Counted from the first letter of the stretch, positions 12,238 through 59,275 are shown. The stretch is DNA of 64,000 nt from an uncultured Gemmatimonadota bacterium (GCA_964577985.1 CAZOAR010000002.1:13130-77129); one strand, 5' to 3'. Notes: generated by a model from the letters alone, not told the origin. Made by a program: numbers and translations.

Positions 12238-14646
12238 TTGAACGATACCAGCCGGACAGATACAGACAAAACCTCTCCCAACCACCAACGATGGATCATA
12301 TGGTCGATCCTGGCCGCCATCCTCTTCTCCGGCATGATATTCAGAATCTCGTATCTCGAGGAGATCGCGGGCAGTCCGGAGTTTTCCTACCCCTCGCTTG
12401 ACGCGGGCTACCACGATTACTGGGCGCGGGCACTGGCGACCGGAGACTGGACCGTCAAGGAGAATGAATGGCTCAGCAACTTCAGCGATCCGGAGATCCC
12501 CGCGAACCCTTATTTCAGGCCGCCCGGATACCCCTGGTTTCTTTCTCTCGTCTACTACCTGACCGGCAGCAGTCCTCTGGCCGCCAGGATAGTACAGATG
12601 ATGCTCGGGCTTATAAACTGTCTCCTCGCCTTCCTTCTCGCAAGAAAAGTGTATGGCAGCATTGAGGGGCTTATCCTCGCCTCGCTGATGGCCTCTTACT
12701 GGGCCTTCGTCTACTTCGAGGGCGAGCTGCTCGCACCTGTACTCACTATCACACTCCTGCTGTCGCTTGTCTACGCGCTCTGCCTCTGGTATGACAGCCA
12801 CTCTTTCCGGCACGCATTCGCGGCGGGTGTTCTGCTCGGATCGGCCTCTCTCGCGCGCCCTAACGTCCTCCTCTCGGGGCCGGTTATACTGGTCTGGATC
12901 TGGTGGGTGTCGAGACACGGCGGCGCCCTGGATTACACCGTGAAGTCGTGTATGAGATTCGCCCTGGCGGCGATGCTGGTAATCGCTCCGGTGACTATAC
13001 GAAACTATGTGGTTGCCCGGGATTTCGTGCTGATTACGTCCAACGCAGGGATCAATCTCTATATCGCCAACAATGAGGGCTCTGACGGCTTCACCCCGAG
13101 CGCGCGGGCACTGCAGGAATTGACCGGTATCGGGGGATGGAGGAGCAGCGATTACCCGAGGGTAGTGCGCGGCCTGGAGGCGAAATTCGGCAGGAAGATG
13201 AAGTACTCGGAGGTATCCTCCTATTTCGCCGGACTGGCGCTGGACTATGTCGGGCAACACCCCTGGGAGACACTGAGGCTCATCGCAAGAAAAGCAGCTC
13301 TTTTCTGGGGACCCGCGGAGGTGTCCAACAACAGGGAAATCTACTACGTTAAAGAGAATTCCCCTGTCCTGCGCTATTTCCCCGGTTTTCCACTGGTCGT
13401 GTCACTCTTCGTGGTCGGGCTGGCATGGCTTTTCGCCGATTGGAGGAGTCGCGCCGGAGTGGAGAGAATCACCCGTTCCCTGACGGACCGGGAGTTCGAG
13501 ATTTCCATACTGATCCTTCTCCTGATTATCGTATACTTCGTGTCATTTCTCCCATTTTTCGTAGCAGGCAGGTTTCGAACACCTCTCATACCGTTTCTTT
13601 TTCTGTTCGGCTCATACGGACTGCACCGTTCGGGTCAACTTGCCACGTCACGCTCTCTCTCCAGAATCGCGCTCCTGTCGGCAACCTACCTGGTAATCTA
13701 CATCGCGGCCCGCGTGCCTGTCGTCGCCTACACGCCCGATGCCGCCCGCTGGCATTTCAACCGCGGTGTCGCCCTCAGTATGGTGGGGCAACTGGAGGAG
13801 TCTTCTGTCGAGTATCTCCGGGCGATCGCGCTCGACCCGGACTTCGAACAGTGTCATCTCAACCTGGCCGATCTACTTGTGAAGAGAGAGGAATTCGATA
13901 AGGCTATCGAGCAGTACCTTGACGCCCTCCGTATCAAGCCGGGCCAGGCGAATGTCCACAATAATCTCGGTAACGCATATCAAATTACAGGCAACTTCGA
14001 AGAATCGATCAACCACTATCGCAAGGCGCTGGAGATCGCGCCGGACAACGCCTCTACATATTTCAACCTGGGGGTATCTTACCTGTCGCAGGACATGCCC
14101 GACGAGGCGATCGTCAGTTATGAAAAGACCATATCGTTGCAGCCCGACAATCCGAATGCACACTATAGCCTGGCAAATGTGCTGCGATTACTGGGACGAC
14201 AGGAAGAGGCGGTCCATCATTTTCGCGAGGCGATACGCCTGGCACCAACCTTCGTCGATGCGCAGGCGGGACTTGCCATGCTTCTGGCACAGAGGGGTGA
14301 TCATAAGGGAGCCATAGATCACTTTGAGCAGGCATTGGCTCTAAAACCGGATGACCTGCCTGCCCTGAACGGCCTTGCGTGGGTGCTGATGGACACCAGT
14401 AACAAGCAGTTCAGCGACCCGGAGCGTGCAGTCACCCTGGCCAGGAAGGCGTGCGAGTTGACCGGGAATAAGCATCCGGCGGTTTTGAACACAATGGCGG
14501 CCGCATATGCCTCTATTGGCGAGTTCGATATGGCGATAGAAACCGCTCAAAGGGCCATCGACCTTGCCACATCAGCACGAAGTGACCAGCTTGCAGACGC
14601 TATTCGGGAGCGACTGGAATTGTATCGACACGGAGAATCGAATTAG
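12238..14646 (+). CDS. GT-C family membrane glycosyltransferase (PMT/ArnT-like) fused to C-terminal TPR repeats
   Basis: 802 aa. About 12 predicted TM helices with an ArnT/PMT-like N-region (…YFRPPGYPWFLSLVYYLTG…). C-terminal third is canonical TPRs (…AHYSLANVLRLLGRQEEAVHHFREAIRLAP…). TTG start. Confidence 0.75.
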   Translation: MNDTSRTDTDKTSPNHQRWIIWSILAAILFSGMIFRISYLEEIAGSPEFSYPSLDAGYHDYWARALATGDWTVKENEWLSNFSDPEIPANPYFRPPGYPWFLSLVYYLTGSSPLAARIVQMMLGLINCLLAFLLARKVYGSIEGLILASLMASYWAFVYFEGELLAPVLTITLLLSLVYALCLWYDSHSFRHAFAAGVLLGSASLARPNVLLSGPVILVWIWWVSRHGGALDYTVKSCMRFALAAMLVIAPVTIRNYVVARDFVLITSNAGINLYIANNEGSDGFTPSARALQELTGIGGWRSSDYPRVVRGLEAKFGRKMKYSEVSSYFAGLALDYVGQHPWETLRLIARKAALFWGPAEVSNNREIYYVKENSPVLRYFPGFPLVVSLFVVGLAWLFADWRSRAGVERITRSLTDREFEISILILLLIIVYFVSFLPFFVAGRFRTPLIPFLFLFGSYGLHRSGQLATSRSLSRIALLSATYLVIYIAARVPVVAYTPDAARWHFNRGVALSMVGQLEESSVEYLRAIALDPDFEQCHLNLADLLVKREEFDKAIEQYLDALRIKPGQANVHNNLGNAYQITGNFEESINHYRKALEIAPDNASTYFNLGVSYLSQDMPDEAIVSYEKTISLQPDNPNAHYSLANVLRLLGRQEEAVHHFREAIRLAPTFVDAQAGLAMLLAQRGDHKGAIDHFEQALALKPDDLPALNGLAWVLMDTSNKQFSDPERAVTLARKACELTGNKHPAVLNTMAAAYASIGEFDMAIETAQRAIDLATSARSDQLADAIRERLELYRHGESN

Positions 14647-14725: not shown

Positions 14726-14779
14726 ATGTGTCCTGATCTGATCATCACCACGAAGAAGAATAATGAGAAAACTCAATAA
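14726..14779 (+). CDS. Small leader ORF (17 aa, MCPDLIITTKKNNEKTQ) overlapping the radical-SAM start
   Basis: ATG preceded by GGGGAGAG at 7-8 nt spacing. Ends 16 nt into the radical-SAM gene in another frame. May be a leader peptide or a precursor peptide, or may not be translated. Confidence 0.2.
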   Translation: MCPDLIITTKKNNEKTQ

Positions 14780-15767
14780 GTCGCTGGCGATGTGGATGAT
14801 CGCCAGGGGCACTCTCAGCTATAACATAAAAAGGCCTATCAACGTCTCTTTCGAACTTACCCACTCCTGCACATGCAATTGTCTCCACTGCGACCACGGC
14901 GGCATGGTCCCGCGAGAAGTAAGGCTCACTCCACTGGATTACGGAAGACTCGAGAGGGAGATAAAGCCCACACTGCTCCAACTTTCCGGCGGAGAACCGC
15001 TGTTGCGGCCCGACCTGCTCCACATAATAAAAGCCGTTAAAGAAAAATCGGGGCTGCCCTATCTCATAGTGGTAACAAACGGGAGTCTCCTGAAAGAAGA
15101 TTTTTATCTTGCCTGTGTAGAGGCAGGGGTCAATCAGTTTTCAATCTCCCTCGATTTTCCGGATGCTCGTCACGATGAATTTCGCAGGCACGATGGCCTT
15201 TTTCAACACCTTTCCGATCTGCTGCCCAAACTGGCCGCCCACGGTCACGAGAATATCGTACTGAACACGGCCGTTACCAGCTTGAACCTTCCCTTGCTCG
15301 AGGCGTGTCATGAAAAGGCGGTGGAATGGGATGTAGACATCTCCTACAGCCCCTACACTGCGAAACGCACAGGTGAATCTAAATACAGCGTCGAAGATCC
15401 GGAGGAACTGGAACTCCTCGACGAAACCATGGCGAAGCTCTCCCGTCTGAAGAGAACCGAAGGCCGAATCGCGAACTCGGATTGGACGCTCACGGGCATC
15501 TCCGATTTTTTCAGGAACGGAGGAATCCCGGGATGCAGCGCGGGGGAGAGGTCCATAGTCGTCAACCCTGACGGTACTATGCGACCCTGTTCGATGTTCG
15601 ACCTGAAGTTCAAGGATCGCAGAGAGATGGCCGAGAAGTTTGTGAGGAACAACGACTGCAAAGAATGCTATGTGGCCATCAGGGCCTACCTCAACCAGAG
15701 CTACTGGAAGCTCCTCTTCAACAACCTCAGCGAACGGGTGCTGACGTCACGCCGTAACGGCCACTGA
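14763..15767 (+). CDS. Radical SAM enzyme with a Cys-rich C-terminal (SPASM/twitch-like) extension
   Basis: CxxxCxxC at residues about 34-41 (HSCTCNCLHC). GGEPLL SAM-binding motif. C-terminal cysteines CSAGERSIVVNPDGTMRPC…NDCKEC. Confidence 0.8.
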   Translation: MRKLNKSLAMWMIARGTLSYNIKRPINVSFELTHSCTCNCLHCDHGGMVPREVRLTPLDYGRLEREIKPTLLQLSGGEPLLRPDLLHIIKAVKEKSGLPYLIVVTNGSLLKEDFYLACVEAGVNQFSISLDFPDARHDEFRRHDGLFQHLSDLLPKLAAHGHENIVLNTAVTSLNLPLLEACHEKAVEWDVDISYSPYTAKRTGESKYSVEDPEELELLDETMAKLSRLKRTEGRIANSDWTLTGISDFFRNGGIPGCSAGERSIVVNPDGTMRPCSMFDLKFKDRREMAEKFVRNNDCKECYVAIRAYLNQSYWKLLFNNLSERVLTSRRNGH

Positions 15768-16578: not shown

Positions 16579-18894
16579 ATGAAAGGCCATAAGATATCTG
16601 TTGCACTTCTTCTTGCACTGCTGACGGTTTTCTCGACCGTCAGCCAGATCCACTCCTACTGCCTGATAAGGGGCGGCTTGGGAGGACCCGGCAACAGGGA
16701 GGACTGCTGCGCGCAGGACATATCACAATGGCGATGGGAGAACATGCCTGTCCCGATGTGGATAAATGACGGCACCGATCCCGACCTGTGGGATGGCATC
16801 CGAGTGGCGTATGACGTGTGGAACGAGGTGCCATCATCCTATTTCACAGTGGTGGACAGCGGTTTCACTCCCATAAACTATGTCAACGCATACGACGGGG
16901 TCAACGTCGTCAGTTTCAGCAACGACTCGACGCAGTTTCCTCCCGGAAGCAACACTATCGCCTTCACATCGGGAAACTGGGGCGCCAGAGTCGGGGATGA
17001 TTACACGATTACGGGCTTCGACGTTATCTTCAACGATGTCGGGTTCAATTTCGGCTATCCTCCCCCTCCAGGGGCGTTCAGCGTGGTAGGAATCGCGGGT
17101 CATGAACTGGGCCACGCGTGGGCACTTGCTCACTGCTGGGAGGGAGGGCCTCCCGGGTGCGGCCCCAACTGCACGACATCGACCATGTACGGCTACTCGA
17201 GCCCGCCCGGTACGTCGGATGAAAGCCTTGAACTCGATGACATCGCCTCAATCACACTGGCATATCCGAAGTGGCTCCTGCAGGGGCTCGTTCGAGATGC
17301 GGGGACTCACGATCCTCTGGACGGCGCGCTCATTACCGCTACCGCCCCGGTGGCGAAAGACACGTTGATCTATGGATCACTTCCCGATTCGCTTCCCGGC
17401 AACGGATCGACGTGCGGGTATGTCGGAGGGGCGATATCGACCGACGGCAACGGTAACTTCGAGATGGCCACACTCGATTCCGTCTACGATATAGTGGTCT
17501 TCAAGAGTGGGTATATGCCGGACACGCTGCAGGTCGCGTTTACGGGGATCGAGACACTCCAGGTGAGGGCCGACCTTGGACCGTCTGCACTTAGCTCGAT
17601 TACAGGTACCCTCACAGACGAGGGTACTCAGGAAGGGATCAACGGTTTTGTAGTGCTCATGCAGAATGGTCAGCCGTATGACACCGTGGCCACCGACGCC
17701 TTGACCGGAGCTTTCACCTTTTCCGATGTCCCCGTCTCGCTCCCGCCTTTTGTGGTCTACACGGGTGTAGAACTCCTCGCCAGCATGCCATATCCCCGGT
17801 CGGAGGAGATAGATACCACGATCGAGGTCACACAGGGCGGGCCGAGCGTCGTGGATTTTGCTATCTCCCCGGCTGATGTTTTCCTCGTCGATGACGACGG
17901 TGGTGACACTTACGAAGACTATTTCATGAACGAGATCAACGCGGTGGGCAGGACATACTACCACTTCGACATCAACGCGGAGGGCGAATCGGCGGTCAAC
18001 TATGTCGGCGTCTTTCCCCTCTCTTCCATCGTTCTCTGGTTTACCGGCGATGTCACGGAGAATACGCTGTCCCAGACCGAGCAGGACAGCCTCGAGAACT
18101 TTCTCGATCGGGGAGGAGACCTCTTCCTCACGGGCCAGAATATCGCGGAGGACCTCGACGCCCAGGGGTATGGTTTCCTCGAAGACTATCTCCACGTCAC
18201 CCACGAGGGGAACGCCTCGTACTTCATGGCGAGGGGTGTGTTCAACAACCCCGTCACCGGCTTCCTGCAGTCATTTGTCACATCGGGCTCTGGTGGCGCC
18301 AACAACCAGACATCGCGTGATATCCTGTCTCCCGCGCCTCCCGCTGAGGAGTTCATATACTATGTCGCCAGCCCGGCGGATCTGACACCACTCGGGACTG
18401 CAGCGACCTACGTCGAGGGACCGAGTTCCTCGAAGGCGATACTGATGGGATTCGGGTTCGAAGCGATAAACAGTCAGGGGGATGATTCCACTCGCGTCAC
18501 GCGCGAAGAGGCGATGCTCGCGATACTCAACTGGTTCGACGATATTGTGGGCATTGGTGACAATGATGTGTCGAGCGGCGGGCCGGCACTTCCAAGGGCG
18601 TTCGCGTTGAAGCAGAACTATCCGAATCCGTTCAACCCGCAGACCTCGATCCAGTTCGCCATACCCGCGGAGGAGGGCGGCAGCAAGGCGGAAGAGAAGG
18701 TCGTGCTGAAGGTGTATGACATGAGAGGAAGGATGGTTGATAAGCTCGTCGACAAGGCCCTCTCATCCGGCATCTATACCGTGCAATGGGATGGGAAGGA
18801 CTCGCGGGGAGTCAGGGTGCCGTCGGGCGTATATTTCTACAAACTCATCTGGGGTGATCAATCGAGCACGAGGAAGATGGTAGTGCTCAAGTAG
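16579..18894 (+). CDS. Secreted zinc metalloprotease (metzincin/matrixin-like) with T9SS C-terminal sorting domain
   Basis: Signal peptide. HELGHAWALAH (HExxHxxxxxH) zinc-binding motif. C-terminal about 90 aa (…LKQNYPNPFNPQTSIQFAIP…VYDMRGRMV…GVYFYKLIWGDQSSTRKMVVLK) matches the Por/T9SS CTD pattern. Confidence 0.75.
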   Translation: MKGHKISVALLLALLTVFSTVSQIHSYCLIRGGLGGPGNREDCCAQDISQWRWENMPVPMWINDGTDPDLWDGIRVAYDVWNEVPSSYFTVVDSGFTPINYVNAYDGVNVVSFSNDSTQFPPGSNTIAFTSGNWGARVGDDYTITGFDVIFNDVGFNFGYPPPPGAFSVVGIAGHELGHAWALAHCWEGGPPGCGPNCTTSTMYGYSSPPGTSDESLELDDIASITLAYPKWLLQGLVRDAGTHDPLDGALITATAPVAKDTLIYGSLPDSLPGNGSTCGYVGGAISTDGNGNFEMATLDSVYDIVVFKSGYMPDTLQVAFTGIETLQVRADLGPSALSSITGTLTDEGTQEGINGFVVLMQNGQPYDTVATDALTGAFTFSDVPVSLPPFVVYTGVELLASMPYPRSEEIDTTIEVTQGGPSVVDFAISPADVFLVDDDGGDTYEDYFMNEINAVGRTYYHFDINAEGESAVNYVGVFPLSSIVLWFTGDVTENTLSQTEQDSLENFLDRGGDLFLTGQNIAEDLDAQGYGFLEDYLHVTHEGNASYFMARGVFNNPVTGFLQSFVTSGSGGANNQTSRDILSPAPPAEEFIYYVASPADLTPLGTAATYVEGPSSSKAILMGFGFEAINSQGDDSTRVTREEAMLAILNWFDDIVGIGDNDVSSGGPALPRAFALKQNYPNPFNPQTSIQFAIPAEEGGSKAEEKVVLKVYDMRGRMVDKLVDKALSSGIYTVQWDGKDSRGVRVPSGVYFYKLIWGDQSSTRKMVVLK

Positions 18895-18968: not shown

Positions 18969-19760
18969 CTATCTGATCCATTTCGCTCCGCGCTTCTCCA
19001 GAAACGCGGCCATCCCCTCCTGCGCCTCTTCTCCGGAGCGCAGGTCGGCGATGACACGAGCGGTGTACTCCTTCGCCTCCTCGAGAGACATCCCGCTTAT
19101 CTCGCGCAGGAACTCCTTGCATACCGCGAGGGCGTTCGGGCCCCCTGTAAGGAGGCTTGACACACGATCCTCCACCCTGCTGCGGAGGTCGGCGTGAGGG
19201 ACAACCTCGTTGACCAGCCCGACCTCTTTTGCTCTGCCTGCCGAGATCCGCTCACCGGTGAGGAATAACTCACGGCACGCCTTCTCTCCTATCCTCTTCA
19301 TCAGGTACGGCCCGATGCACGCCGGGACAAGCCCTATCTTCACCTCACTCAGGCTGAACCTCGCCTCATCGGACGCGATCACGATGTCGCACGCGGCCAC
19401 CAGGCCGTTGCTCCCGCCTATAGAGGCACCGTTGACACACGCTATTGTCGGTTTAGAGAGGTTGTAGAGGATGTACATCAGATCAGCAAGCCGGAGCGCG
19501 TCGTCGAGGTTCTCCTCCCGGGTGAAGTCCTTCATCTTCTTCATCCAGTTCACGTCAGCGCCCGCACAGAACGCCGTTCCGCCGCCGGTAATGACGATGG
19601 CTCGGATCGAGGCGTCTTTCTCCGTTCGATCGAGGGCGCGTGTCAGTTCCCCGATCATAACGTCATTGAAGGCGTTGCGCACCTCCGGCCGGTCGAGGGT
19701 TATCCTCGCGACCTGTTCTGTGCGTTCCATCTCTATTGTGTGATATTCGCCGTCCTTCAA
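18969..19760 (-). CDS. Enoyl-CoA hydratase/isomerase (crotonase family)
   Basis: 263 aa. Crotonase fold motifs (…AIVITGGGTAFCAGADV…, …ACVNGASIGGSNGLVAACDIVIAS…). Confidence 0.85.
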   Translation of the reverse strand: MKDGEYHTIEMERTEQVARITLDRPEVRNAFNDVMIGELTRALDRTEKDASIRAIVITGGGTAFCAGADVNWMKKMKDFTREENLDDALRLADLMYILYNLSKPTIACVNGASIGGSNGLVAACDIVIASDEARFSLSEVKIGLVPACIGPYLMKRIGEKACRELFLTGERISAGRAKEVGLVNEVVPHADLRSRVEDRVSSLLTGGPNALAVCKEFLREISGMSLEEAKEYTARVIADLRSGEEAQEGMAAFLEKRGAKWIR

Positions 19761-19849
19761 CTGTCTCCAGCCTGTTCACCGGGTCAGGAAAACGCCCCGA
19801 AAGGAAAAGGGTGTTTATCGAGGGGCACGCTTCTGATGCCTTCCCTGCC

Positions 19850-20248
19850 TCAGGCGATCTCCGGCACCGCCTTGTAACCATAACATAGGATGCCCGCTTC
19901 GCCCTCCTCCACAATCTTTCTGAACTCTATCCTTACCGGCATCCCGATCTCGATGTCGTCCGGGCCGCAATCGGCCACCTGGCACTGGATCATCACTCCG
20001 TCATCGAGTTCCACGACGGCTATCGGATAAGGGATGGCGTCACGAAATTCATCGGGACCGACGTGGATTACCGTAAATGTCGATACCTTCCCCCTGTCGG
20101 CGAGTGTGACCTGTTCGAAATCCTTCTTACCGCACTCCGCGCATATCAGCCTTGGCGGAAACCATACCTTTCCGCACCCCTTACACCGTGCTCCCTCGTA
20201 CCTGTACCGCTGCGGTATCTCTCTCCAGTATCTTGCTGATGTCGACAT
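19850..20248 (-). CDS. DUF35 protein (Zn-ribbon plus OB-fold), thiolase/HMGCS partner subunit
   Basis: 132 aa. CKGCGKVWFPPRLICAECG zinc ribbon followed by an OB-fold. Sits immediately downstream of the thiolase, as in archaeal-type thiolase/HMGCS complexes. Confidence 0.75.
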   Translation of the reverse strand: MSTSARYWREIPQRYRYEGARCKGCGKVWFPPRLICAECGKKDFEQVTLADRGKVSTFTVIHVGPDEFRDAIPYPIAVVELDDGVMIQCQVADCGPDDIEIGMPVRIEFRKIVEEGEAGILCYGYKAVPEIA

Positions 20249-21406
20249 TTATACAACCTCCAGTATGTGGACCAACGAGCTGGCGCACGTGCCGCCCATG
20301 TTCTGCGTGAGTCCTCTCCTCGCACCATCCACCTGCCTGTCACCAGATTCTCCCCTGAGCTGCTCGGTAATCTCACAAATCTGGGCGACCCCGGTGGCGC
20401 CAACGGGATGGCCCTTTGACTTGAGTCCCCCGCTCGTGTTGACCGGTATCCTTCCTCCTATGGCTGTCTCGCCGCTTTCCGTGGCGATACCGCCTTTGCC
20501 GGCCTCTACAAAACCAAGCGCCTCGATCGCGCATATCTCGGATATCGAGAAGCAATCGTGCACCTCGGCGAGGTCGATGTCCGACGGCCCTGCGCCCGCC
20601 ATCTCGTATGCCTTGGCTGCGGCGTTCTCCGCCGCCGCCAGATGCGTTATATCCTTCCTCTGGTGGAGCGCCATCGTGTCTGTCGCGTGTCCTGATCCGC
20701 TGACCCTCACGAGCGGCTTTTTCGAGATCTTTTTCGCCATCTCCAGCGGGCAGATGACCACCGCGGCCGCCCCGTCGGTTATGGGAGAGCAATCGAGGAT
20801 CCTCAGAGGATCGGCGACCATCACCGAGTTGAGCACCTGATCGATCGTCAGTTTCATCCGGTACTGGGCATACGGGTTTTTCGAACCGTTATCGTGGTTC
20901 TTGACCGACACCTGCGCCATCTGCTCCCTTGTGGTCCCGTATTTCTCCATGTGCGATCTTGCCATCAGCGCGTATAGACCGGGGAAAGTCACACCATTGT
21001 AGGCCTCATACTCCTGGTCAGCGGCCGCTGCGAGAGCGTTTGTCGCTCCTCCGCCCTCGATGTCCGTCATCTTTTCCACACCGCCGACCAGAACGATCTC
21101 GCTCATCCCTGAGGCTACATCCATCAGCCCCTGCCTGAAGGCAAGACCGCCCGATGCGCAGGCCGATTCGACACGCGTCGCCGGAATCGGGTTGACGCCA
21201 AGATAATCCGCCATGAGTGGCGCGATATGCTCCTGGCCGACGAAGAGTCCTGGTGACATGCAGCCTACATACATGGAGTCGATCCTGTCGACGCCCGCGT
21301 CCTCGATCGCCTTCAGCGACGCCTCGACAAACATCGTTCTCAGGGACTTGTCCCAGAGCTCCCCCCACTCGATCATTCCCACACCAATCACTGCTATATC
21401 CATCAT
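20249..21406 (-). CDS. Thiolase (acetyl-CoA C-acetyltransferase, archaeal/SCP-x type)
   Basis: 385 aa. [20 protein letters not shown]…MYVGCMSPG… thiolase N-domain. C-terminal [14 protein letters not shown]. Confidence 0.85.
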
Positions 21407-21469
21407 TATCTTGCTCCTTGGTGACCTGTCAGTTGCAATTACAGGAGAAACCTCGACAGAGATCGGCGG

Positions 21470-22516
21470 CTACTCGCCCATCCTGATCTTTCTCCGGTAT
21501 TTCGCGTATGTGCCGTAATCGAGATGTACTTTGTTCCTGTCGAGGTAGTCGGTTGTCCCGGGCGCCTTGTCCCGTACCTCCCTGATCCGGTCGGTCACGC
21601 TGTAGATGAACCCGTCACTGCCCGCTCCGGAACCGTAGGAGACCATCAGTATCGATTGACCCGGCTCTGCGACATCGAGAACCGCGGTCAACCCGATAGG
21701 CGACGCTGCCGAGTACGTGTTCCCCAGCCTCGGACAGAGAAGGCCCGTCTCTATCTGCTTCATCGTAAATCCAAGCTTTTTTCCAACCCTCACGGGGAAT
21801 TTTCCGTTCGGCTGATGGAATACGACATGATCGAAATCCTCCGGACCTTTCCCGGCCATCTCCATGATCGCTGTGGCCGCGCCCGTCACATGCTTGAAAT
21901 ATGCGGGCTCGCCCGTGTAACGCCCGGCGTGTCTCGGATAGTGCATATGTTCCCTGCGCCAGAAATCGGGCGTGTCGGTCATGTATGAATAGGTGTGCTC
22001 CACTTCCGCCACTGTCCCATCGGTCCCGAATATGAACGCCGCGGCACCCGCCGACGCGGAATACTCTAATGCGTCACCCGGCGCGCCCTGGGATGTGTCG
22101 GCCCCTATGGCGAGCGCGTATTCCATCTTCCCCGCCTCCACATGGCTCAGCGCCACGAACATCCCTTCACTCCCGGCCTTGCAGGCGAACTCAAAGTCCG
22201 CGCAGTGGACGTCCGGGGTGGCACCGATCGCCTCGGCGACAACCGTACCGCTCGGTTTCACCGCGTAAGGATGAGATTCCGAACCGATGTACACGGCCCC
22301 TATCCGACGGGGATCAACTTCCGCTCTCTTCAGCGCGTTCCTGGCCGCCTCCACCGACATGGTAATAACATCCTGGTCGGGCGCGGGGACGGACTTCTCC
22401 TCCAGCATCAGGCCCTTCTTGTAACTGGGGGCATCAGCGCCCCAGACCTTTGCGATTTCCTCCACCCTTATCCTGTATCTGGGTGCGTATGCTCCATATC
22501 CAACGATTCCAGCCAC
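21470..22516 (-). CDS. Hydroxymethylglutaryl-CoA synthase, archaeal type
   Basis: 348 aa. GTG start with an AGGAGG RBS. MAGIVGYGAYAPRYRIRVEEIAKVWG…GSESHPYAVKP…DFEFACKAGS matches archaeal-type HMGCS from start to end. Confidence 0.85.
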   Translation of the reverse strand: MAGIVGYGAYAPRYRIRVEEIAKVWGADAPSYKKGLMLEEKSVPAPDQDVITMSVEAARNALKRAEVDPRRIGAVYIGSESHPYAVKPSGTVVAEAIGATPDVHCADFEFACKAGSEGMFVALSHVEAGKMEYALAIGADTSQGAPGDALEYSASAGAAAFIFGTDGTVAEVEHTYSYMTDTPDFWRREHMHYPRHAGRYTGEPAYFKHVTGAATAIMEMAGKGPEDFDHVVFHQPNGKFPVRVGKKLGFTMKQIETGLLCPRLGNTYSAASPIGLTAVLDVAEPGQSILMVSYGSGAGSDGFIYSVTDRIREVRDKAPGTTDYLDRNKVHLDYGTYAKYRRKIRMGE

Positions 22517-22861
22517 TCAAACCTCCTTTTGTTAGATACCAAGAGTAGATGCTCATATATGTCATATATTGTCAACCTTTACAGGGTTTCCCCCGTTCTT
22601 CTCATGCAAAGGGGTGCCAGGCGTTCCTCTCGCGGGCACCATAAGGTATCAGAGGTTCGGTGCCATGTCAAGGGCCGACAGGCAGTGAGGTTTCATGCAT
22701 TTCTGCACGCGAAGGAGCCGGGAAGTCGATGTGATGGGGTGATAGCTGCGATCGAAGGAGCGGTCCATGGTCAGGCGTGGCTGGAGAGAATTTCGACGTA
22801 TTACGTGCCGAAAGCACGCGGGCGGGAATTGGACCGCTGCTCGCCACATCCTCGTTCCGGT

Positions 22862-24472
22862 TCAGCGAGTGAGGATCATCTTCTTCGTCGAAGCAAGAGG
22901 TCCCGCCTTCAGTCGATACAGGTACACTCCGGATCCGACTGTCTGTCTATGATCGTTCTTTCCGTCCCAATGGACCGAGTATTGCCCCGGCTCTTCCTCT
23001 CTCTCCATCAGTGATCTGACTAATTGTCCCCGCAGATCGTAGATCTTCAGCTCCACATGAACAGCGTCTCCCGCCGGAATGGAGTAGCCGATCGTCGTCG
23101 ATGGGTTGAAGGGATTGGGATAGTTCTGGGCGAGTGTGAAGCTCCGGGGAATCGACCGGCCCGGCGGAGATCCCACACCCACGGGCTCTTCGATAATAGC
23201 CGTCCAGACACTCAGGTTGTAATTGTCCAGCCTCGTCCATACAGGGTAGATCTTCCCATTGAATGCGGCGACATTGATGTAGTCGCCGAAGAACACGTAA
23301 TGATCAGGTGTGAAGGAAGATTCGCTGACCCTGAAGTTGGTGAAGGTCTCTCCCCCGTCTTCCGACTTCGCCACAAATACGTCTGTTGCCACCCCACTCG
23401 TCTCCCGCCGGTCATAGAACACAACATAGATGATCCCGCTCACCGGATCCACCGTCATCCAGTTGAAGAACTGGTGCCTCGTGCCCGTGTCGTTGTTCAC
23501 CCGTACGACCTCTCCCCAGTTCGCTCCACCATCGGTCGAGGTGATGAAGAAGACGTCTGTATCGTCGGTTCCATTTCTCTGGTCGGACCAGCAGATGTAG
23601 ACGTTGCCCCGATACGGTGAATGGCTGATATCACTGGCTGTCACGGAAAACCCGTCGCACCGATATATCCCCGTGACATTGAAATCCCATCCCCCCGGTT
23701 GGGGATCGACAAAGATGTCCTCTCCAAAGGTCACACCGCCGTCCATCGACCTGTCGAACATGATGCCCTCCGGCCCTGACCAGCTCGTGTAAATCTCCCC
23801 GTTCGGCCCCACTGCCGGAACCGCGCCCTCTACCGTATCGTCGCTGTCGAGGCAGTTCCCGCCCTGGTCGCTCACCCGGACGGGTTCAGACCAGGTTTCG
23901 CCCTGGTCCGTCGACCGGGAGAAGAGGATCCGGGAGCTGTCGGCCGGATTGGAGCTGTCGTACTCATCGAATTCGGTCCAGGCCAGGTAAAGGTTCCCAC
24001 GGTACGGGGAATTCGTCAGGTCTGTCCCCATCCACTCCTTGTCCTGGTTAGCGGGGGGATTGAACCCCGCCGCCGAACCGTCGTTCCAGGTCAACCCACC
24101 ATCGGTCGACTTCTGGACTACGATGCGGTCGATCCAGTATCCGATGGAATCCGGCGGATTCGAGAGGTGAGAATAGTAGAGATTACCCTCCACGTCGAAG
24201 ATCACGCAGGGATCTCCCCACACACCAAATGCATCCGATGTCATGCGCCCCCCCACCCAGGAGTAACCTCCGTCCGTCGAGTAGTAGATATAATCGAGGT
24301 TCGCGCCCGCCGCCAGATTCATCCGATTCGTCGGATTGATGGCGATTGTCACCTCCTCGGGATCATAGCTCTCTTCGCCGCTGATCTGGACATTCTGGTA
24401 TTGAGCCGTGAGGATGCCCGGGATGCCGAAAAGCAGGACGATCAGACCGATATATCGGGTCACTCGAGGCAC
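22862..24472 (-). CDS. Secreted BNR/Asp-box repeat protein (sialidase / Ycf48-like beta-propeller) with T9SS C-terminal sorting domain
   Basis: Signal peptide. At least six Asp-box repeats (STDGGYSW, STDGGLTW, STDQGETW, SMDGGVTF, STDGGANW, SEDGGETF). C-terminal …LAQNYPNPFNPSTTIGYSIP…IYDLRGQLV…GVYLYRLKAG…KKMILTR T9SS CTD. GTG start. Confidence 0.75.
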   Translation of the reverse strand: MPRVTRYIGLIVLLFGIPGILTAQYQNVQISGEESYDPEEVTIAINPTNRMNLAAGANLDYIYYSTDGGYSWVGGRMTSDAFGVWGDPCVIFDVEGNLYYSHLSNPPDSIGYWIDRIVVQKSTDGGLTWNDGSAAGFNPPANQDKEWMGTDLTNSPYRGNLYLAWTEFDEYDSSNPADSSRILFSRSTDQGETWSEPVRVSDQGGNCLDSDDTVEGAVPAVGPNGEIYTSWSGPEGIMFDRSMDGGVTFGEDIFVDPQPGGWDFNVTGIYRCDGFSVTASDISHSPYRGNVYICWSDQRNGTDDTDVFFITSTDGGANWGEVVRVNNDTGTRHQFFNWMTVDPVSGIIYVVFYDRRETSGVATDVFVAKSEDGGETFTNFRVSESSFTPDHYVFFGDYINVAAFNGKIYPVWTRLDNYNLSVWTAIIEEPVGVGSPPGRSIPRSFTLAQNYPNPFNPSTTIGYSIPAGDAVHVELKIYDLRGQLVRSLMEREEEPGQYSVHWDGKNDHRQTVGSGVYLYRLKAGPLASTKKMILTR

Positions 24473-25937: not shown

Positions 25938-26624
25938 ATGACCATGCAATCGAGGCTCGAACAGACAGAAGACTTTGCGATCAAGGACTGCGCCCTGACG
26001 GCCATCGCCACCGGGAAGCGGGCCCAGAACCTCCGGGAACTCAGGGACGGCCTGCTGAGCGTCCACCCGGGCAGCATATATTACCACTTCTGGGGGGGGC
26101 TGCTCCGCCCGAGCTTTGTCGAGCCCGAATACAACAACGACTTCGCCTCGTGGGTGTACCACGGTCTGCACGACAAGATTCTCTGTGAACGGCTCGCGGT
26201 CATCGACCCCACAGACTTCGACACACTGGATGACCTCCGCCAGGAGTTGATAGAGGTGATCGAGGAACGCCTCGACGAGATGGAGCTCGTCCCATGGTCG
26301 AGCCCCGACCAGCAGTTTCACTTCACGCGGTCACAGATAGTGGTTATCGACACCCATCATGTCATCCACGATCCTGAGGAGCTGGTGGAACTGATACCGA
26401 ATATCTCCACCAGCAGTGTCTTCTACCACTTCATTGACGCCCGGCGACGCACCGAAGAGAACACGGATGACTTCCGGTCCTGGCTGAGGGGATTCAAGAA
26501 CCACTATGGAGCGCTTGCCAGCGGTCTCGCCGAGATCGATCCTTACTTTTCCTCCCTGACCAGGCTGAGGGATCAACTCGCAGCGCTGTTCAGGGACTAT
26601 TTCACCAGGAGAGGCCGGGGATGA
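25938..26624 (+). CDS. Conserved hypothetical protein
   Basis: 228-aa soluble ORF with coding-like composition. No family recognised by eye. Confidence 0.5.
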   Translation: MTMQSRLEQTEDFAIKDCALTAIATGKRAQNLRELRDGLLSVHPGSIYYHFWGGLLRPSFVEPEYNNDFASWVYHGLHDKILCERLAVIDPTDFDTLDDLRQELIEVIEERLDEMELVPWSSPDQQFHFTRSQIVVIDTHHVIHDPEELVELIPNISTSSVFYHFIDARRRTEENTDDFRSWLRGFKNHYGALASGLAEIDPYFSSLTRLRDQLAALFRDYFTRRGRG

Positions 26625-26938
26625 ATAAACAGGTAGTTTCCCCTGCTTTTTCAGCGGATCTGTCATAACTCTTTTCGTGGCAGCCGTATGTTGGAGGGAT
26701 GAAGTGCAAACAGTAGTCCGTCGCGTCAACTGTTCCTCTCGCGTAAGTAAAGCCTTTTTGGAGCCCCGTCTTCTCGAGGGTGAACGTTCCAGCAGTGCCG
26801 TGCAGCACTTGTTTGAGACCGCAGGTCGAGTTGCGCGGAGCGAGTGACCCCTAGAGTTAGAACGGGTCAAAAAGACGTCCCTGGAGCGAGAGAAACACTT
26901 GACGCCTCAATGCATAAGAAAAACCGGGGAACCTCCAG

Positions 26939-28180
26939 ATGAATAAACTCCTTGACAGTTACGCGAAGGTGGTTGGAGAAGACGTCATAGATCATCTCCG
27001 ACAGCTCTCCGCTCCGCTCAAAGGTATGAAGATGGTTCACGTCAATTCCACCCGTGTGGGTGGAGGCGTGGCCGAGATATTAACGAAACTCGTTCCCCTG
27101 ATGAAAGAGCTCGGCATAGACGCTACCTGGGAAGTCATAAAGGGAGATGACGACTTTTATCAATGTACGAAGGCGTTCCACAACGCCCTGCAGGGAAACG
27201 TAGTTGCGATCCCCGACTCTCTTCTGAGAAGATATGAGGATACGAACGCCCGCAACTACGAGGAACTCGGCTCCCGGCTGAAAGAGGCCGACATCGTCTT
27301 CATCCATGACCCCCAGCCGGCTCCACTCCTGAAACTCTGTCCCGACAGACGCGGAAAATGGGTCTGGAGATGCCATATCGACATCAGTCGCCCCTACCGA
27401 CAGGTATGGAAGTACCTTCGTGATTTTGTAGCCGGCTACGACGCCAGCATCTTCTCGCTCGCCGCCTTCGCCCAGGACATGCCGCACACGAAGTATCTGC
27501 TCCCTCCCAGCATCGACCCGTTGAGCGAAAAGAACATGCTCCTCGAGAAGAAAGAACTCGATTCTCTGTACAGCCAGTTCGAGCTGGATCCGGGAAGGCT
27601 CCTGGCACTCCAGGTGTCACGTTTTGACCGTTTCAAGGATCCGGTCGGGGTCATTCAGTCTTATCGCTTGACAAAGACGTTTACACCCTCACTGCAGCTC
27701 GTCCTTGCCGGCGGCTCGGCGACAGACGACCCGGAGGGAGAAATAGTGCTCAATGAGGTCCGCAAGGCGGCTAACGGCGATCCGGACATACACATCCTCC
27801 TCCTTCCCCCTGACGCCCACCGGGTGATCAACGGCCTGCAGAGGATCGCTGACATCGTCCTGCAGAAGTCAACGAAAGAAGGCTTCGGACTGACTGTCAC
27901 AGAGGCGATGTGGAAACGCAAACCGGTCATCGGCGGCGACACGGGTGGCATCCGTCTACAGATTCTCAACCACCACACCGGCTTTCTCGTCAGCACTCCA
28001 GAGGGCGCGGCACTGAGAATGCGCTACCTCTTCAACCACCGCGACGTGCTGCACGAAATGGGAAGGAAAGCCGAGGCATTCGTCAGGGAGAACTTCCTCA
28101 TAACCAGGCACATACGTGAATACCTCACACTGTCGCTCGCGCTTATCCACGACGCGAGCGAGCGTATCGAGCTGAAATAG
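26939..28180 (+). CDS. GT4 glycosyltransferase resembling trehalose glycosyltransferring synthase TreT
   Basis: 413 aa. N-terminal …MKMVHVNSTRVGGGVAEILTKLVPLMKELGIDATWEVI… resembles archaeal/Thermotoga TreT. GT-B C-domain (…QKSTKEGFGLTVTEAMWKRKPVIGG…). Confidence 0.6.
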   Translation: MNKLLDSYAKVVGEDVIDHLRQLSAPLKGMKMVHVNSTRVGGGVAEILTKLVPLMKELGIDATWEVIKGDDDFYQCTKAFHNALQGNVVAIPDSLLRRYEDTNARNYEELGSRLKEADIVFIHDPQPAPLLKLCPDRRGKWVWRCHIDISRPYRQVWKYLRDFVAGYDASIFSLAAFAQDMPHTKYLLPPSIDPLSEKNMLLEKKELDSLYSQFELDPGRLLALQVSRFDRFKDPVGVIQSYRLTKTFTPSLQLVLAGGSATDDPEGEIVLNEVRKAANGDPDIHILLLPPDAHRVINGLQRIADIVLQKSTKEGFGLTVTEAMWKRKPVIGGDTGGIRLQILNHHTGFLVSTPEGAALRMRYLFNHRDVLHEMGRKAEAFVRENFLITRHIREYLTLSLALIHDASERIELK

Positions 28181-28199
28181 CCCCGCGTGGAATTTACCA

Positions 28200-28227
28200 T
28201 TCACAATCTGACAAATTTGTATATATT
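28200..28227 (+). promoter_or_regulatory. Putative promoter for otsB-otsA
   Basis: TTCACA, 16-nt spacer, TATATT in an AT-rich island between the TreT-like gene and otsB. Confidence 0.35.
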
Positions 28228-28290
28228 TTAGGTTGACCGGAATGGAGGAACTCCTTCGCGAGCGGGGAACATATCCTCAGATACAACGGC

Positions 28291-29181
28291 ATGCGCTCTC
28301 ACCCCCGTCAAAGGATCTGTCGTGCCATGAAAGTCCTGAAATCAGACCTCGATCTGGAGCTTTTTTTTCGAGATCTCTGCTCATCAACGCAGCGGGTACT
28401 CTTCCTCGATTATGACGGGACGCTTGCCCCCTTCAGGATCGAGAGAGACGGGGCCGAACCCTACCCCGGCGTCCGCAGGATCCTGCAGACGATCCTGCAG
28501 AGCGGTAATACCCGCCTCGTGATGATCAGTGGACGCACGATAGACGACATCGTCCCTCTGCTCAAGATCGAGCCGCTCCCCGAGATCTGGGGTTCTCACG
28601 GCTGGGAACGGTTGCGCCCCGGCGAGGGGTATGAAGTGGGAGAGATGGATGACCTCTCCGCCAGAGCGCTGGATGCCGTGCGGACAAACCTGGAGGACGA
28701 AGGGCTGGCTCATCTGAGAGAAGACAAGCCGGGATGTCTTGCTCTCCACTGGAGGGGGATGGACGAATCGGAGGTCGGGGAGTTGAGGGAGAGGTACCAG
28801 AAAAAATGGTCAAATCTCAGCAGGAGTTATGATCTCACACTGATAGCGTTTGACGGGGGCCTGGAGCTCCGCATCAAAGGGCGCAGCAAAGCCCACGCCG
28901 TGAGAACCACCCTCGCGGAGATGGGAGAGGAAACCATTGCAGCCTTCCTGGGCGACGACATGACAGACGAGGAGGCCTTCCGGGAGCTTGGCAAAAACGC
29001 CATTGGAGTACTGGTGAGGGATGAGTTTCGCCCGACATCCGCAGACATATGGATCAGGCCGCCAGGGGAACTCCTCGAGTTCCTCGAACGCTGGGCGGAC
29101 GCATCCCTTGAGGAACCGGGGCCGGATAGGAAGGGCAATGCGATCGACACACGGTCCGGCTCAAGAGGAGACGCGTCTTGA
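28291..29181 (+). CDS. otsB: Trehalose-6-phosphate phosphatase (HAD-IIB)
   Basis: LFLDYDGTLAPF HAD motif I, …ISGR… motif, C-terminal GDDMTDE. The start may instead be the internal Met at 28327 (MKVLK…). Confidence 0.8.
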   Translation: MRSHPRQRICRAMKVLKSDLDLELFFRDLCSSTQRVLFLDYDGTLAPFRIERDGAEPYPGVRRILQTILQSGNTRLVMISGRTIDDIVPLLKIEPLPEIWGSHGWERLRPGEGYEVGEMDDLSARALDAVRTNLEDEGLAHLREDKPGCLALHWRGMDESEVGELRERYQKKWSNLSRSYDLTLIAFDGGLELRIKGRSKAHAVRTTLAEMGEETIAAFLGDDMTDEEAFRELGKNAIGVLVRDEFRPTSADIWIRPPGELLEFLERWADASLEEPGPDRKGNAIDTRSGSRGDAS

Positions 29182-30650
29182 AACCTCCGGAGAAGCGTCT
29201 TGTCCTGGTCGCGAACAGGCTGCCGGTCGTCCTGAAGAGAAGCATTGAGGGGTGGGAGGCCCAGCCATCATCGGGAGGACTGGTCACGGCGCTCGCGCCG
29301 GTACTCAGGAACCGGGGTGGTCTCTGGATCGGCTGGCCCGGCACATTTGGCATAGATGATGACGAAATAAATGAGCTGCTTGCGCTTGGCAGCAGAAAAA
29401 CCGGATACGAGTTGAAGGCGGTACACCTCACGCCGGAGGAGGTCGAAAGTTATTACTACGGCTTTTCCAACGAAATAATCTGGCCCCTGTTTCACGACCT
29501 TCAGTCACACTGCAACTTCAACCCCACCTTCTGGAAGACGTATCAGGATGTGAACAGAAAATTCAGCGAGGTGATTCTGAGGAATACCGATCCCCTTGAT
29601 TTCGTCTGGGTACACGACTATCACCTGATGTGCGCGGCAAGAGAACTGCGCGACATGGGTGTCGACCCACTGATCGGATTTTTTCTCCACATCCCATTCC
29701 CTTCTCTGGACATCTTTCTCAAACTCCCCTGGCGGTTCCAGATTCTCCGCGCCCTTCTCGCCTTCGACCTGCTGGGCTTTCAGACACTGCGTGACAGGCG
29801 CAATTTTCTGCAGTGCATCAAGGCGCTTATCAAGGACGCAACCGTCCGGGGGAAAGGGCAGGTCATGACGATACATTACGAGGGTCGGGAGATCAGGGCG
29901 GGGAGCTTTCCCATCAGCATCGATTTCGAGGAGTTCTCTCAGCTCGCCGCCACTCAGGCGGTCGCGGACAAGGCCTGGTACACACACGAGGACCTTTCCG
30001 ACCTGCATATAGCCCTGGGGATAGACCGCCTCGACTATACGAAGGGAATTCCCAACAGGCTCGAAGCGTTTAGAAACGCGCTCTCCCGCTATCCTGACCT
30101 GATCGGCAGGATCATACTGATTCAGGTGGTTGTCCCCAGCAGAGAGGAGATTCCCGAGTATTACGGGCTGAAGACCGAGATAGAGCGAATGGTGGGGGAG
30201 ATCAACGGCCAGTTCACGCAGTCGGACTGGGTCCCCATACACTACATATACCGAAGCATTGAAAAGACTGAACTCCTCGCCTATTACCGTACCGCCGAGA
30301 TAGCGCTGGTGACCCCGCTGAAAGACGGAATGAATCTTGTCGCGAAGGAGTATTGCGCGTCGAACCTCGAAGAGAACGGCGTTATCATACTCAGCGAATT
30401 CGGAGGGGCCGCGGCCCAGCTGCAGAAGGGAGCGATAATGGTCAATCCCTACGACATAGAGGGCGTTGCGGATGCCATATACCAGGCCTTCACGATGGGT
30501 CGGGAGGAGCGCAAATTGCGGATGAGAAAGATGCGGCAATCGATCCGCCGACAGGGCATCTTCTGGTGGGTCGACTCTTTTCTCAAGGCTGCCATCGCGA
30601 AGGAGCTTCAGGATTTTCCGCTGCTCGATGAATACTTCCCGGAAGATTGA
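29178..30650 (+). CDS. otsA: Alpha,alpha-trehalose-phosphate synthase (GT20)
   Basis: 490 aa. [10 protein letters not shown]…GGLVTAL…GGLWIGW…, HDYHLM, …[16 protein letters not shown]… are all GT20/OtsA hallmarks. Overlaps the otsB stop by 4 nt. Confidence 0.9.
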
Positions 30651-58680: not shown

Positions 58681-58711
58681 AGATCACCGGTCAACGCCGT
58701 ATCGCTCCTCA

Positions 58712-59179: not shown

Positions 59180-59183
59180 TATA
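59165..59183. promoter_or_regulatory. Fur box in the fur / oxidoreductase divergent promoter region
   Basis: GAGAATGATTATCAATATA matches GATAATGATAATCATTATC at 15 of 19 positions. Confidence 0.5.
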
Positions 59184-59275
59184 AGTTATCGGCGATACGG
59201 TCAGCTGTCAAGGACCATTTGACTCGACTGATGAGAATGGCTAATATAACACAAACGCAAGAGGAGGAACCAGAG

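Follow-up and report, generated by a model that had tools for sequence, protein, structure and literature searches.

A four-gene operon combining an archaeal-type HMG-CoA synthase complex with a LiuC-type hydratase in an uncultured Gemmatimonadota bacterium: a probable node of leucine/isovalerate metabolism

[quoted passage not shown] The question is raised by an operon in a 64,000-nucleotide stretch of DNA (the whole stretch analyzed, hereafter the 64-kb window) from an uncultured Gemmatimonadota bacterium (GCA_964577985.1, CAZOAR010000002.1:13130-77129). The initial annotation of the window had offered two answers, namely, dual isoprenoid routes or a different acyl-CoA condensation. The present analysis suggests that the operon probably serves as the HMG-CoA/3-methylglutaconyl-CoA node of leucine/isovalerate metabolism rather than as a mevalonate entry or in another role. 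The four-gene minus-strand operon itself was recovered as the initial annotation had described it, with all four open reading frames (ORFs) in place:

21470-22516, minus strand: archaeal-type HMGS, 348 aa, first gene of the operon, GTG start
20249-21406, minus strand: SCP2-type acetoacetyl-CoA thiolase, 385 aa, partner of HMGS
19850-20248, minus strand: DUF35 Zn-ribbon/OB-fold scaffold protein, 132 aa
18969-19760, minus strand: LiuC-type crotonase, putative 3-methylglutaconyl-CoA hydratase/HMG-CoA dehydratase, 263 aa, last gene of the operon

The first three proteins (the trio) were compared with curated family models and with PDB chains, the identity figures being taken from HMMER and tblastn alignments. 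The product of the first gene matched the archaeal-type HMGS models TIGR00748 (555 bits; cutoff 353) and NF003274 (550 bits; cutoff 244), and scored 118 bits with the bacterial HMGS model and 77-80 bits with FabH. Its best PDB match was 6ESQ_I (473 bits, versus 214 bits for PhlA), with 196 of the 307 counted aligned positions identical (∼64%), and its tetrad E80/C112/H234/N266 aligned with E82/C114/H238/N270 of the archaeal enzyme. This E-C-H-N tetrad of archaeal HMGS has been defined and shown to be essential (PMC12960953). Identification of the protein as a 3-ketoacyl-ACP synthase III (KAS-III), as PhlA, or as another member of the thiolase superfamily, the outcome against which the initial annotation had cautioned, was ruled out by the family scores and the catalytic tetrad. 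The thiolase, described earlier as SCP-x-type, fell into the Thiolase_C_1/SCP2-type Pfam families and scored above the cutoff of 420 with PRK06064 (554 bits); with NF053570, the model of the Methanothermococcus thermolithotrophicus acetoacetyl-CoA thiolase, it reached 570.6 bits, just below the cutoff of 600. Its best PDB match was 6ESQ_A (394 bits, 193 of 380 positions identical; PhlC, 126 bits), and the three thiolase motifs were intact, with C83-A-S (CxS), H283-D-C-F (HDxF), and G332-H333 (GHx) aligned with C85, H284-D-C-F, and G335-H of 6ESQ_A. The DUF35 partner contained the Pfam domains zf-ChsH2 (31.9 bits) and OB_ChsH2_C (75.5 bits) and a CxxC...CxxC motif visible in its translation, and matched 6ESQ_E, the DUF35 chain of the archaeal complex, with 124 bits versus 68 bits for PhlB. 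The best PDB match of each protein of the trio was, hence, the corresponding chain of the M. thermolithotrophicus complex (6ESQ/6ET9). The HMGS E-C-H-N tetrad and the thiolase CxS/HDxF/GHx motifs are the markers that separate true HMG-CoA-forming complexes from repurposed bacterial ones (PMC12960953). Judged by sequence, the trio is a catalytically competent archaeal-type HMG-CoA-forming complex, its assembly and activity being predicted.

The fourth protein is a crotonase, as annotated at the outset (ECH_1, 216 bits). Its scores with the NCBIfam models PRK05674 ("gamma-carboxygeranoyl-CoA hydratase," 272 bits; cutoff 426) and PRK07468 (249 bits; cutoff 350) fall below cutoff, and its substrate was, therefore, assigned from orthology and synteny. 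The best annotated homologs, with 44-48% identity, were located in the liu clusters of Massilia putida and a Marinobacter in the plasmid collection. The gene order there is isovaleryl-CoA dehydrogenase, carboxyltransferase, hydratase, methylcrotonyl-CoA carboxylase (MCC) alpha subunit, and HMG-CoA lyase, and the homolog occupies the liuC position. An equivalent layout has been described in Legionella, where lpg1827 (MCCbeta), lpg1828 (enoyl-CoA hydratase, ECH), and lpg1829 (MCCalpha) follow each other (PMC12776079). The best PDB matches were the structural-genomics crotonases 3i47 and 4kpk. In the window crotonase, in both of these structures, and in 49/49 operon-linked orthologs from the related loci described below, the first catalytic Glu is replaced by Gly (GGSNG-L) and the second (SEVK) is invariant; the two-Glu hydratase 5zai has Glu at the first site. 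Unlinked ECH paralogs in two of the loci (L021 and L024) shared only 31-33% identity. Owing to the liu-cluster homologs, the single-Glu active site, and the synteny in relatives, the crotonase was assigned to the LiuC type: by these comparisons, it is an ortholog of LiuC belonging to a single-glutamate crotonase subtype, with putative 3-methylglutaconyl-CoA hydratase activity.

A scan of a one-genome-per-species collection with the HMGS detected relatives in at least 580 matching stretches. Identities of 70-84% were obtained for the top 80 matches, which came from Eisenbacteria, Zixibacteria, Aminicenantes and other Acidobacteriota, Gemmatimonadota, Ignavibacteria/Melioribacteraceae, Calditrichota, and KSB1; the closest relatives among the matches listed were unclassified metagenome-assembled genomes (MAGs) and Eisenbacteria, which makes it probable that the window originates from this part of the Fibrobacteres-Chlorobi-Bacteroidetes (FCB) group. 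Reference proteins were mapped to all loci by tblastn, and counts were restricted to the 54 loci with at least 7.5 kb of downstream sequence, which span Eisenbacteria, Zixibacteria, Aminicenantes/Acidobacteriota, Gemmatimonadota, and Ignavibacteria. The following genes were found on the same strand:

54/54 loci: the trio (HMGS, thiolase, DUF35)
41/54 loci, downstream: orthologous hydratase (at least 45% identity)
39/54 loci, downstream: ∼535-aa carboxyltransferase (MCCbeta)
36/54 loci, downstream: biotin carboxylase
11/54 loci, downstream: neither hydratase nor carboxyltransferase

The hydratase ortholog shared an operon with MCCbeta in 37 of the 41 loci that contained it, and the typical gene order was HMGS-thiolase-DUF35-MCCbeta-LiuC-biotin carboxylase-biotin carboxyl carrier protein (BCCP). 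The ∼535-aa carboxyltransferase scored 743-764 bits with MCCbeta of Pseudomonas aeruginosa and Legionella, 736 bits with human MCCC2, and ∼230 bits with the beta subunit of propionyl-CoA carboxylase (PCCbeta), and was 64% identical to Massilia LiuB; on these scores, it is a true MCC beta subunit. The ATP-grasp biotin carboxylase subunit of the relatives' MCC reached 624 bits (cutoff 597). Genes for a classical thiolase II and a 3-hydroxybutyryl-CoA dehydrogenase come next in some members of the Zixibacteria and Ignavibacteria, and BCCP is followed by an acyl-CoA dehydrogenase in some members of the Aminicenantes and Gemmatimonadota. The linked acyl-CoA dehydrogenase matched Clostridioides difficile Bcd, of the bifurcating butyryl-CoA dehydrogenase type, with 502 bits versus 312-322 bits for isovaleryl-CoA dehydrogenase. 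One of the carriers (L053) is an Ignavibacterium sp. MAG.

The gene that ends canonical liu clusters was missing from this arrangement. With two genuine liu-cluster HMG-CoA lyases as tblastn queries (E ≤ 1e-5), no match was obtained in the window or in 85 related loci, and the motifs RDGLQ (HMG-CoA lyase) and DAMGxN (HMG-CoA reductase, HMGR) were present in no frame of the 85 loci (10-kb flanks) or of the window. The operon of the window is a reduced form of the seven-gene operon, which is widespread in bacteria of the FCB group and in Acidobacteriota. Within the window's own clade (L003, L005-L007, and L010-L012), the order is HMGS-thiolase-DUF35-hydratase-peroxiredoxin-2-oxoacid:ferredoxin oxidoreductase (OFOR) alpha/beta, and the window locus comprises four genes only, without a carboxylase or OFOR. 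It has been rearranged, since its close relatives have the peroxiredoxin and the OFOR downstream of the crotonase. Three members of the clade, L003 (16535-20265), L006, and L011, encode, at a distance of a few kb from the HMGS operon and on the other strand, an acyl-CoA carboxylase that consists of a 577-aa carboxyltransferase, a biotin carboxylase, and a 209-aa biotinyl protein. The 577-aa carboxyltransferase is 33-34% identical to MCC beta and scores 257 bits with the glutaconyl-CoA decarboxylase subunit GcdA and 252 bits with MCC beta; this enzyme may be a divergent (methyl)glutaconyl-CoA carboxylase/decarboxylase that replaces MCC in the window's clade.

The proposed role follows from how these components would act together. 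The thiolase, HMGS, and DUF35 protein would form a channeling complex of the archaeal type handling HMG-CoA, and the LiuC-type hydratase would interconvert HMG-CoA and 3-methylglutaconyl-CoA. The four genes are regarded as one metabolic unit because HMG-CoA is what the complex forms and what LiuC uses or releases, and the unit is placed in leucine/isovalerate metabolism because its linkage with MCC is conserved. HMGS and LiuC are known to act outside the mevalonate pathway in the alternative isovaleryl-CoA biosynthesis (AIB) route of Myxococcus xanthus (PMC5389471). We infer both the metabolic role and the direction of flux, and lean toward the catabolic direction.

Several points speak against this assignment. 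MCC, biotin carboxylase, BCCP, acyl-CoA dehydrogenase, and OFOR were not detected in the 64-kb window by tblastn, and the link to leucine, hence, comes down to the hydratase and the synteny of relatives; the hydratase itself scores below every curated NCBIfam cutoff (272 versus 426 for PRK05674, the best), and the 11 loci listed above have the trio with neither LiuC nor MCC nearby. Genes for HMGR, mevalonate kinase, HMG-CoA lyase, MCC, or an AibA/B-type decarboxylase may be located outside the window. Moreover, each directional model requires one step without in vivo precedent, i.e., net reversal of HMGS/thiolase in the catabolic case and reversal of an ATP-dependent carboxylase, in MCC-bearing operons, in the anabolic case. 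In favor of the assignment, no mevalonate genes were found among the sampled neighbors (Pfam) in the loci lacking both MCC and LiuC; these neighbors were unrelated housekeeping genes and encoded TPR proteins, a FlpD/Fe-S protein, a pyruvate:ferredoxin oxidoreductase (POR) subunit, a release factor, and dihydroorotate dehydrogenase.

The trio also occurs in a different conserved context in four loci from Calditrichota and an unclassified MAG (L027, L034, L052, and L060), where HMGS has another SCP2-type thiolase gene immediately upstream of it (33-38% identity in L034 and L060). Downstream, L027, L034, and L052 share a recurrent FlpD/MvhD-domain Fe-S protein, an FAD-binding partner, and a POR gamma-like subunit.

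Two explanations outside leucine metabolism have to be weighed against this assignment. According to one, the complex would feed HMGR and a lower mevalonate pathway whose genes lie at another place in the genome, giving dual isoprenoid routes, and LiuC (with MCC in relatives) would add leucine-derived HMG-CoA. No new chemistry would be required, as all the enzymes would work in their canonical direction; archaea use this complex for the mevalonate pathway, its catalytic residues are intact here, and Lutibacter and Ca. Bradybacterium, represented by FCB-group isolates/MAGs, have been reported with genes of both pathways (PMC11129491). This explanation is nevertheless unlikely. Neither the window nor the 10-kb flanks of the 85 loci yielded HMGR, mevalonate kinase, or a related gene, bacterial mevalonate genes are normally clustered (PMC6107057), and the conserved operon partners are the liu genes. 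For the window, the initial annotation had likewise reported neither HMGR nor mevalonate kinases. In the present analysis, Pfam/NCBIfam scans of ∼60 ORFs judged to be likely genes, chosen from the list of ORFs of at least 150 aa, revealed no HMGR and no GHMP kinase besides ispE. The ispE gene, reported by the initial annotation as well, is located outside the operon:

32732-33655, minus strand: ispE (4-diphosphocytidyl-2-C-methyl-D-erythritol, CDP-ME, kinase), MEP pathway, TIGR00154

It scored 171 bits with TIGR00154 (cutoff 138.7) and only 24 bits with the mevalonate kinase model, which led to the rejection of a mevalonate kinase assignment, and its presence in the window argues further against a mevalonate route. 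The phyla carrying the operon are generally regarded as users of the MEP pathway, and dual pathways across the phyla of the at least 580 matching stretches would be unparsimonious. A complete MEP pathway has been reported in an Ignavibacteriaceae MAG (PMC11129491). According to the other explanation, the trio would be a repurposed thiolase complex and not an HMG-CoA synthase, namely, a Friedel-Crafts C-acylase similar to PhlABC/MucABC, a degenerate thiolytic complex of the Pseudomonas fluorescens type, an enzyme of the BbsAB or steroid-aldolase type, or a CoA-dependent fatty-acid-synthase-like module with the crotonase as dehydratase. The bacterial HMGS/acetoacetyl-CoA thiolase (ACAT)/DUF35 trios characterized so far have indeed lost HMG-CoA synthesis (PMC12960953), and DUF35-thiolase pairs serve several other reactions, but the E-C-H-N tetrad and HDxF, which are lost in repurposed complexes, are intact here. 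Similarly, the scores with PhlA/PhlC/PhlB (214/126/68 bits) contrast with those of the archaeal chains (473/394/124 bits), the cutoffs of the BbsB (217 bits; cutoff 750) and BbsA (41 bits; cutoff 250) models were not reached, no polyketide synthase, nonribosomal peptide synthetase, ketoreductase, or enoyl reductase was linked, and the crotonase, with its single Glu, belongs to the LiuC type rather than to the generic enoyl-CoA hydratases. Such a function is, thus, highly improbable, and on the intact motifs, repurposed complexes can be considered effectively excluded. With regard to the initial annotation, its gene identities hold, while both of its proposed alternatives fit poorly. Dual isoprenoid routes gained no positive support, as mevalonate genes were never linked to the operon in the 85 related loci, and a different acyl-CoA condensation is probably wrong as worded, since the condensing machinery looks unchanged and it is the metabolic neighbor (LiuC, MCC) that differs.

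Within the assignment to leucine/isovalerate metabolism, flux could run in either direction. In the catabolic direction, which is tentatively put forward at somewhat less than an even chance, MCC and LiuC would generate HMG-CoA, and the HMGS/thiolase/DUF35 complex would operate in reverse. The endergonic conversion of HMG-CoA and CoA to acetoacetyl-CoA and acetyl-CoA would be coupled to exergonic thiolysis through the shared CoA site, yielding three acetyl-CoA without free acetoacetate or HMG-CoA lyase. Consistent with this, the trio shares its operon with orthologs of liuB-liuC-liuD, and the lyase that ends canonical liu clusters is absent from the 85 loci; the MCC retains its ATP-grasp biotin carboxylase, which speaks for flux through MCC and LiuC toward HMG-CoA; and genes for thiolase II, 3-hydroxybutyryl-CoA dehydrogenase, and acyl-CoA dehydrogenase neighbor the operon in Zixibacteria and Ignavibacteria. 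In vitro, acetoacetyl-CoA is cleaved thiolytically by a related ACAT/HMGS-DUF35 complex of bacterial origin (PMC12960953), and a proteolytic lifestyle would fit the flanking secreted proteins of the window (see below) and the peptide dependence of Ignavibacterium album. Reversed citrate synthase provides a conceptual precedent for pulling a synthase backward. On the other hand, net reversal of HMG-CoA synthase has never been demonstrated, the conversion of HMG-CoA and 2 CoA to 3 acetyl-CoA lies close to equilibrium (about -4 to +11 kJ/mol, a rough estimate from textbook free energies), and the HMGS is ∼64% identical to the biosynthetic archaeal enzyme with no obvious active-site change; the genome may have a lyase gene at another site, and the window's own clade has no MCC in the operon. 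The more specific proposal that the complex is the channeling-driven terminal enzyme of a lyase-free leucine/isovalerate pathway widespread in the FCB group and Acidobacteriota, with the net reaction HMG-CoA + 2 CoA to 3 acetyl-CoA, is possible but doubtful. The anabolic direction is rather unlikely. In it, the complex would make HMG-CoA from acetyl-CoA, LiuC would dehydrate it to 3-methylglutaconyl-CoA, and decarboxylation and reduction would give isovaleryl-CoA. The latter would prime iso-fatty acids, and an OFOR could reductively carboxylate it to leucine in organisms lacking leuABCD. The three steps encoded in the window are those with which the M. xanthus AIB route begins, in which MvaS and LiuC act in this manner (PMC5389471), and I. 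album lacks leucine, valine, and isoleucine biosynthesis except for the aminotransferases and has a 2-oxoisovalerate:ferredoxin oxidoreductase (PMC3362086). I. album and Melioribacter roseus are cited here from published genomes; carriage of the operon in Ignavibacterium refers to the L053 MAG. The anabolic direction would also agree with the two-subunit OFOR downstream of the hydratase in the window's clade, with the Bcd-type acyl-CoA dehydrogenase (502 bits to C. difficile Bcd) linked in some relatives, and with the nearby carboxyltransferase of the clade, which matches GcdA best (257 bits). Bcd-type enzymes commonly run reductively. Against it, neither an AibA/B-like decarboxylase nor an AibC-like reductase was seen among the annotated recurrent neighbor clusters (no search aimed at these two enzymes was made), and the partner in 39 of the 54 loci is a full MCC that depends on ATP, includes a biotin carboxylase subunit, and would need to run backward; M. 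xanthus evolved a separate decarboxylase despite having MCC. The GcdA-like carboxyltransferase is adjoined by a biotin carboxylase and has a nearly equal MCCbeta score (252 bits), and the route would account for leucine only, leaving valine and isoleucine unsupplied.

The assignment to leucine/isovalerate metabolism was also set against four known systems. With the archaeal complex 6ESQ, the window shares the three genes, the best PDB matches, the HMGS tetrad and thiolase motifs, and the protein lengths; the differences are that the host is a bacterium with ispE, that the partner is a LiuC-type hydratase (plus MCC in relatives) and not mevalonate genes, and that the complex is a predicted one. 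The liu cluster (liuA-liuB-liuC-liuD-liuE; Massilia putida NZ_CP019037, Marinobacter NZ_CP092285, and Legionella lpg1827-1829) resembles the operon in its crotonase (44-48% identical) and in the order MCCbeta-LiuC-MCCalpha (biotin carboxylase) kept by the relatives. It differs in that HMG-CoA lyase (liuE) is not linked and the HMGS/thiolase/DUF35 trio is present in its stead, that biotin carboxylase and BCCP are separate genes in the relatives and the linked acyl-CoA dehydrogenase is similar to Bcd and not to isovaleryl-CoA dehydrogenase, and that the window itself lacks MCC genes. The M. xanthus AIB system (MvaS, LiuC, AibA/B, and AibC; PMC5389471) likewise combines an HMGS with a 3-methylglutaconyl-CoA hydratase outside the mevalonate pathway, and the organisms compared include branched-chain amino acid auxotrophs. 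However, MvaS is a stand-alone HMGS of the bacterial type whereas that of the window is of the archaeal tripartite type, M. xanthus LiuC (5JBW) belongs to a separate crotonase lineage (115 bits with the window crotonase), and homologs of AibA/B, AibC, and AibR were not noticed among the annotated linked genes. The repurposed bacterial complexes (PhlABC, MucABC/SmaATase, and the P. fluorescens ACAT/HMGS-DUF35; PMC12960953) have the tripartite gene set in common with the window, but they have lost the HMGS tetrad and the acylases also HDxF; loss of both, the mark of PhlABC/MucABC members, was not found in the window complex, which keeps all these residues and is much closer to the archaeal enzymes than the repurposed complexes are.

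The operon represents known parts in a new combination, i.e., an intact archaeal-type trio joined to liu genes without the lyase. The tripartite complex reportedly occurs in some bacteria, as Vögeli is said to have noted in 2018. A set of 1,001 bacterial trios without adjacent secondary-metabolism genes has been counted and left uncharacterized (PMC12960953). Literature searches yielded no described trio with intact motifs in a liuB-liuC-liuD operon without lyase, and searches on mevalonate genes in the carrier phyla returned nothing relevant. The present loci constitute a large and phylogenetically broad set of trios (at least 580 stretches) with their motifs kept and wired to MCC and LiuC, not to mevalonate genes, and they suggest, in concrete and testable terms, what an intact complex of the archaeal type may do in MEP-type bacteria. 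For genome annotation, this means that HMGS alone is no indicator of a mevalonate pathway or of dual isoprenoid routes. If the catabolic direction were true, it would represent a new, energy-saving finish to leucine degradation, in which the reversed complex would conserve all the thioester energy and avoid acetoacetate activation. If the anabolic direction were true, the myxobacterial isovaleryl-CoA route would extend to many uncultured phyla and might explain the iso-fatty-acid or leucine supply of branched-chain amino acid auxotrophs such as Ignavibacterium.

The organization of the operon was also analyzed at the nucleotide level. The intergenic gaps are 63 nt between HMGS and thiolase, 0 nt between thiolase and DUF35 (the stop codon abuts ATG), and 89 nt between DUF35 and crotonase, and a strong Shine-Dalgarno sequence, AAGGAGG, precedes the GTG start of HMGS. 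No terminator-like sites were found between the operon genes, and one weak hairpin was located within the thiolase ORF. The presumed control region lies upstream of HMGS:

22517-22861, minus strand: upstream intergenic region, 345 nt, presumed promoter/operator

Promoter and terminator consensus scans of the locus performed no better than on shuffled sequence, no sigma-70 consensus was called within 22517-22861, and an Rfam search upstream of HMGS gave no match to a riboswitch or leader RNA. A 15-nt perfect palindrome, ATATATGACATATAT, is present at ∼22555-22569 (minus strand), ∼40 nt upstream of the HMGS start, and is directly preceded by the hexamer TTGACA; it looks like a candidate operator to which a dimeric regulator would bind. 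The idea that an operator is conserved upstream of HMGS was rejected, the palindrome not being shared by the 15 relatives checked.

The gene downstream of the crotonase (16579-18894, plus strand) is convergent with the operon. Large secreted proteins with C-terminal sorting domains (Por_Secre_tail/FlgD_ig) of the type IX secretion system (T9SS) are encoded on both sides, at 16579-18894 (plus) and 22862-24472 (minus). The former has CarboxypepD_reg domains and an HExxH zinc-protease motif visible in its translation, and the latter has a BNR/sialidase-like fold. These flanking proteins fit a polymer-degrading lifestyle of the FCB group.

Genes of the window identified with Pfam/NCBIfam include glycosyltransferases, secreted proteins with T9SS tails, a trehalose cluster, a type IV pilus/type II secretion system cluster, Feo iron uptake, multihaem cytochromes, glutamine synthetase, and CysK. 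Directly upstream of ispE, an ORF at 33656-34732 (minus) encodes a flippase-like/LPG_synthase_TM membrane protein with a weak HpnL-like match; the abutting ORFs (33656/33655) hint that this lipid-related membrane protein is perhaps co-transcribed with ispE. The trehalose-related cluster (25938-30650, plus) comprises a DUF5752 protein with a very strong Pfam match (289 bits), a TreT-like GT1 glycosyltransferase, a trehalose-phosphatase, and a GT20 trehalose-6-phosphate synthase. A radical SAM/SPASM-like protein of 334 aa (14763-15767, plus), with weak matches to heme/NirJ/MoaA-type and tetraether-synthase models, adjoins a PMT_2/TPR membrane glycosyltransferase-like protein (12238-14646). In the 584-aa ORF at 58565-60319 (plus), the zinc-dependent alcohol dehydrogenase domains are confined to the C-terminal ∼320 residues, and the true start is probably internal. 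At the end of the window, a 277-aa ORF (63127-63960, minus) contains Aconitase_C, but of the aconitase catalytic domain in front of it only the final 40 positions are present, which suggests a split, truncated, or frameshifted gene of the aconitase family.

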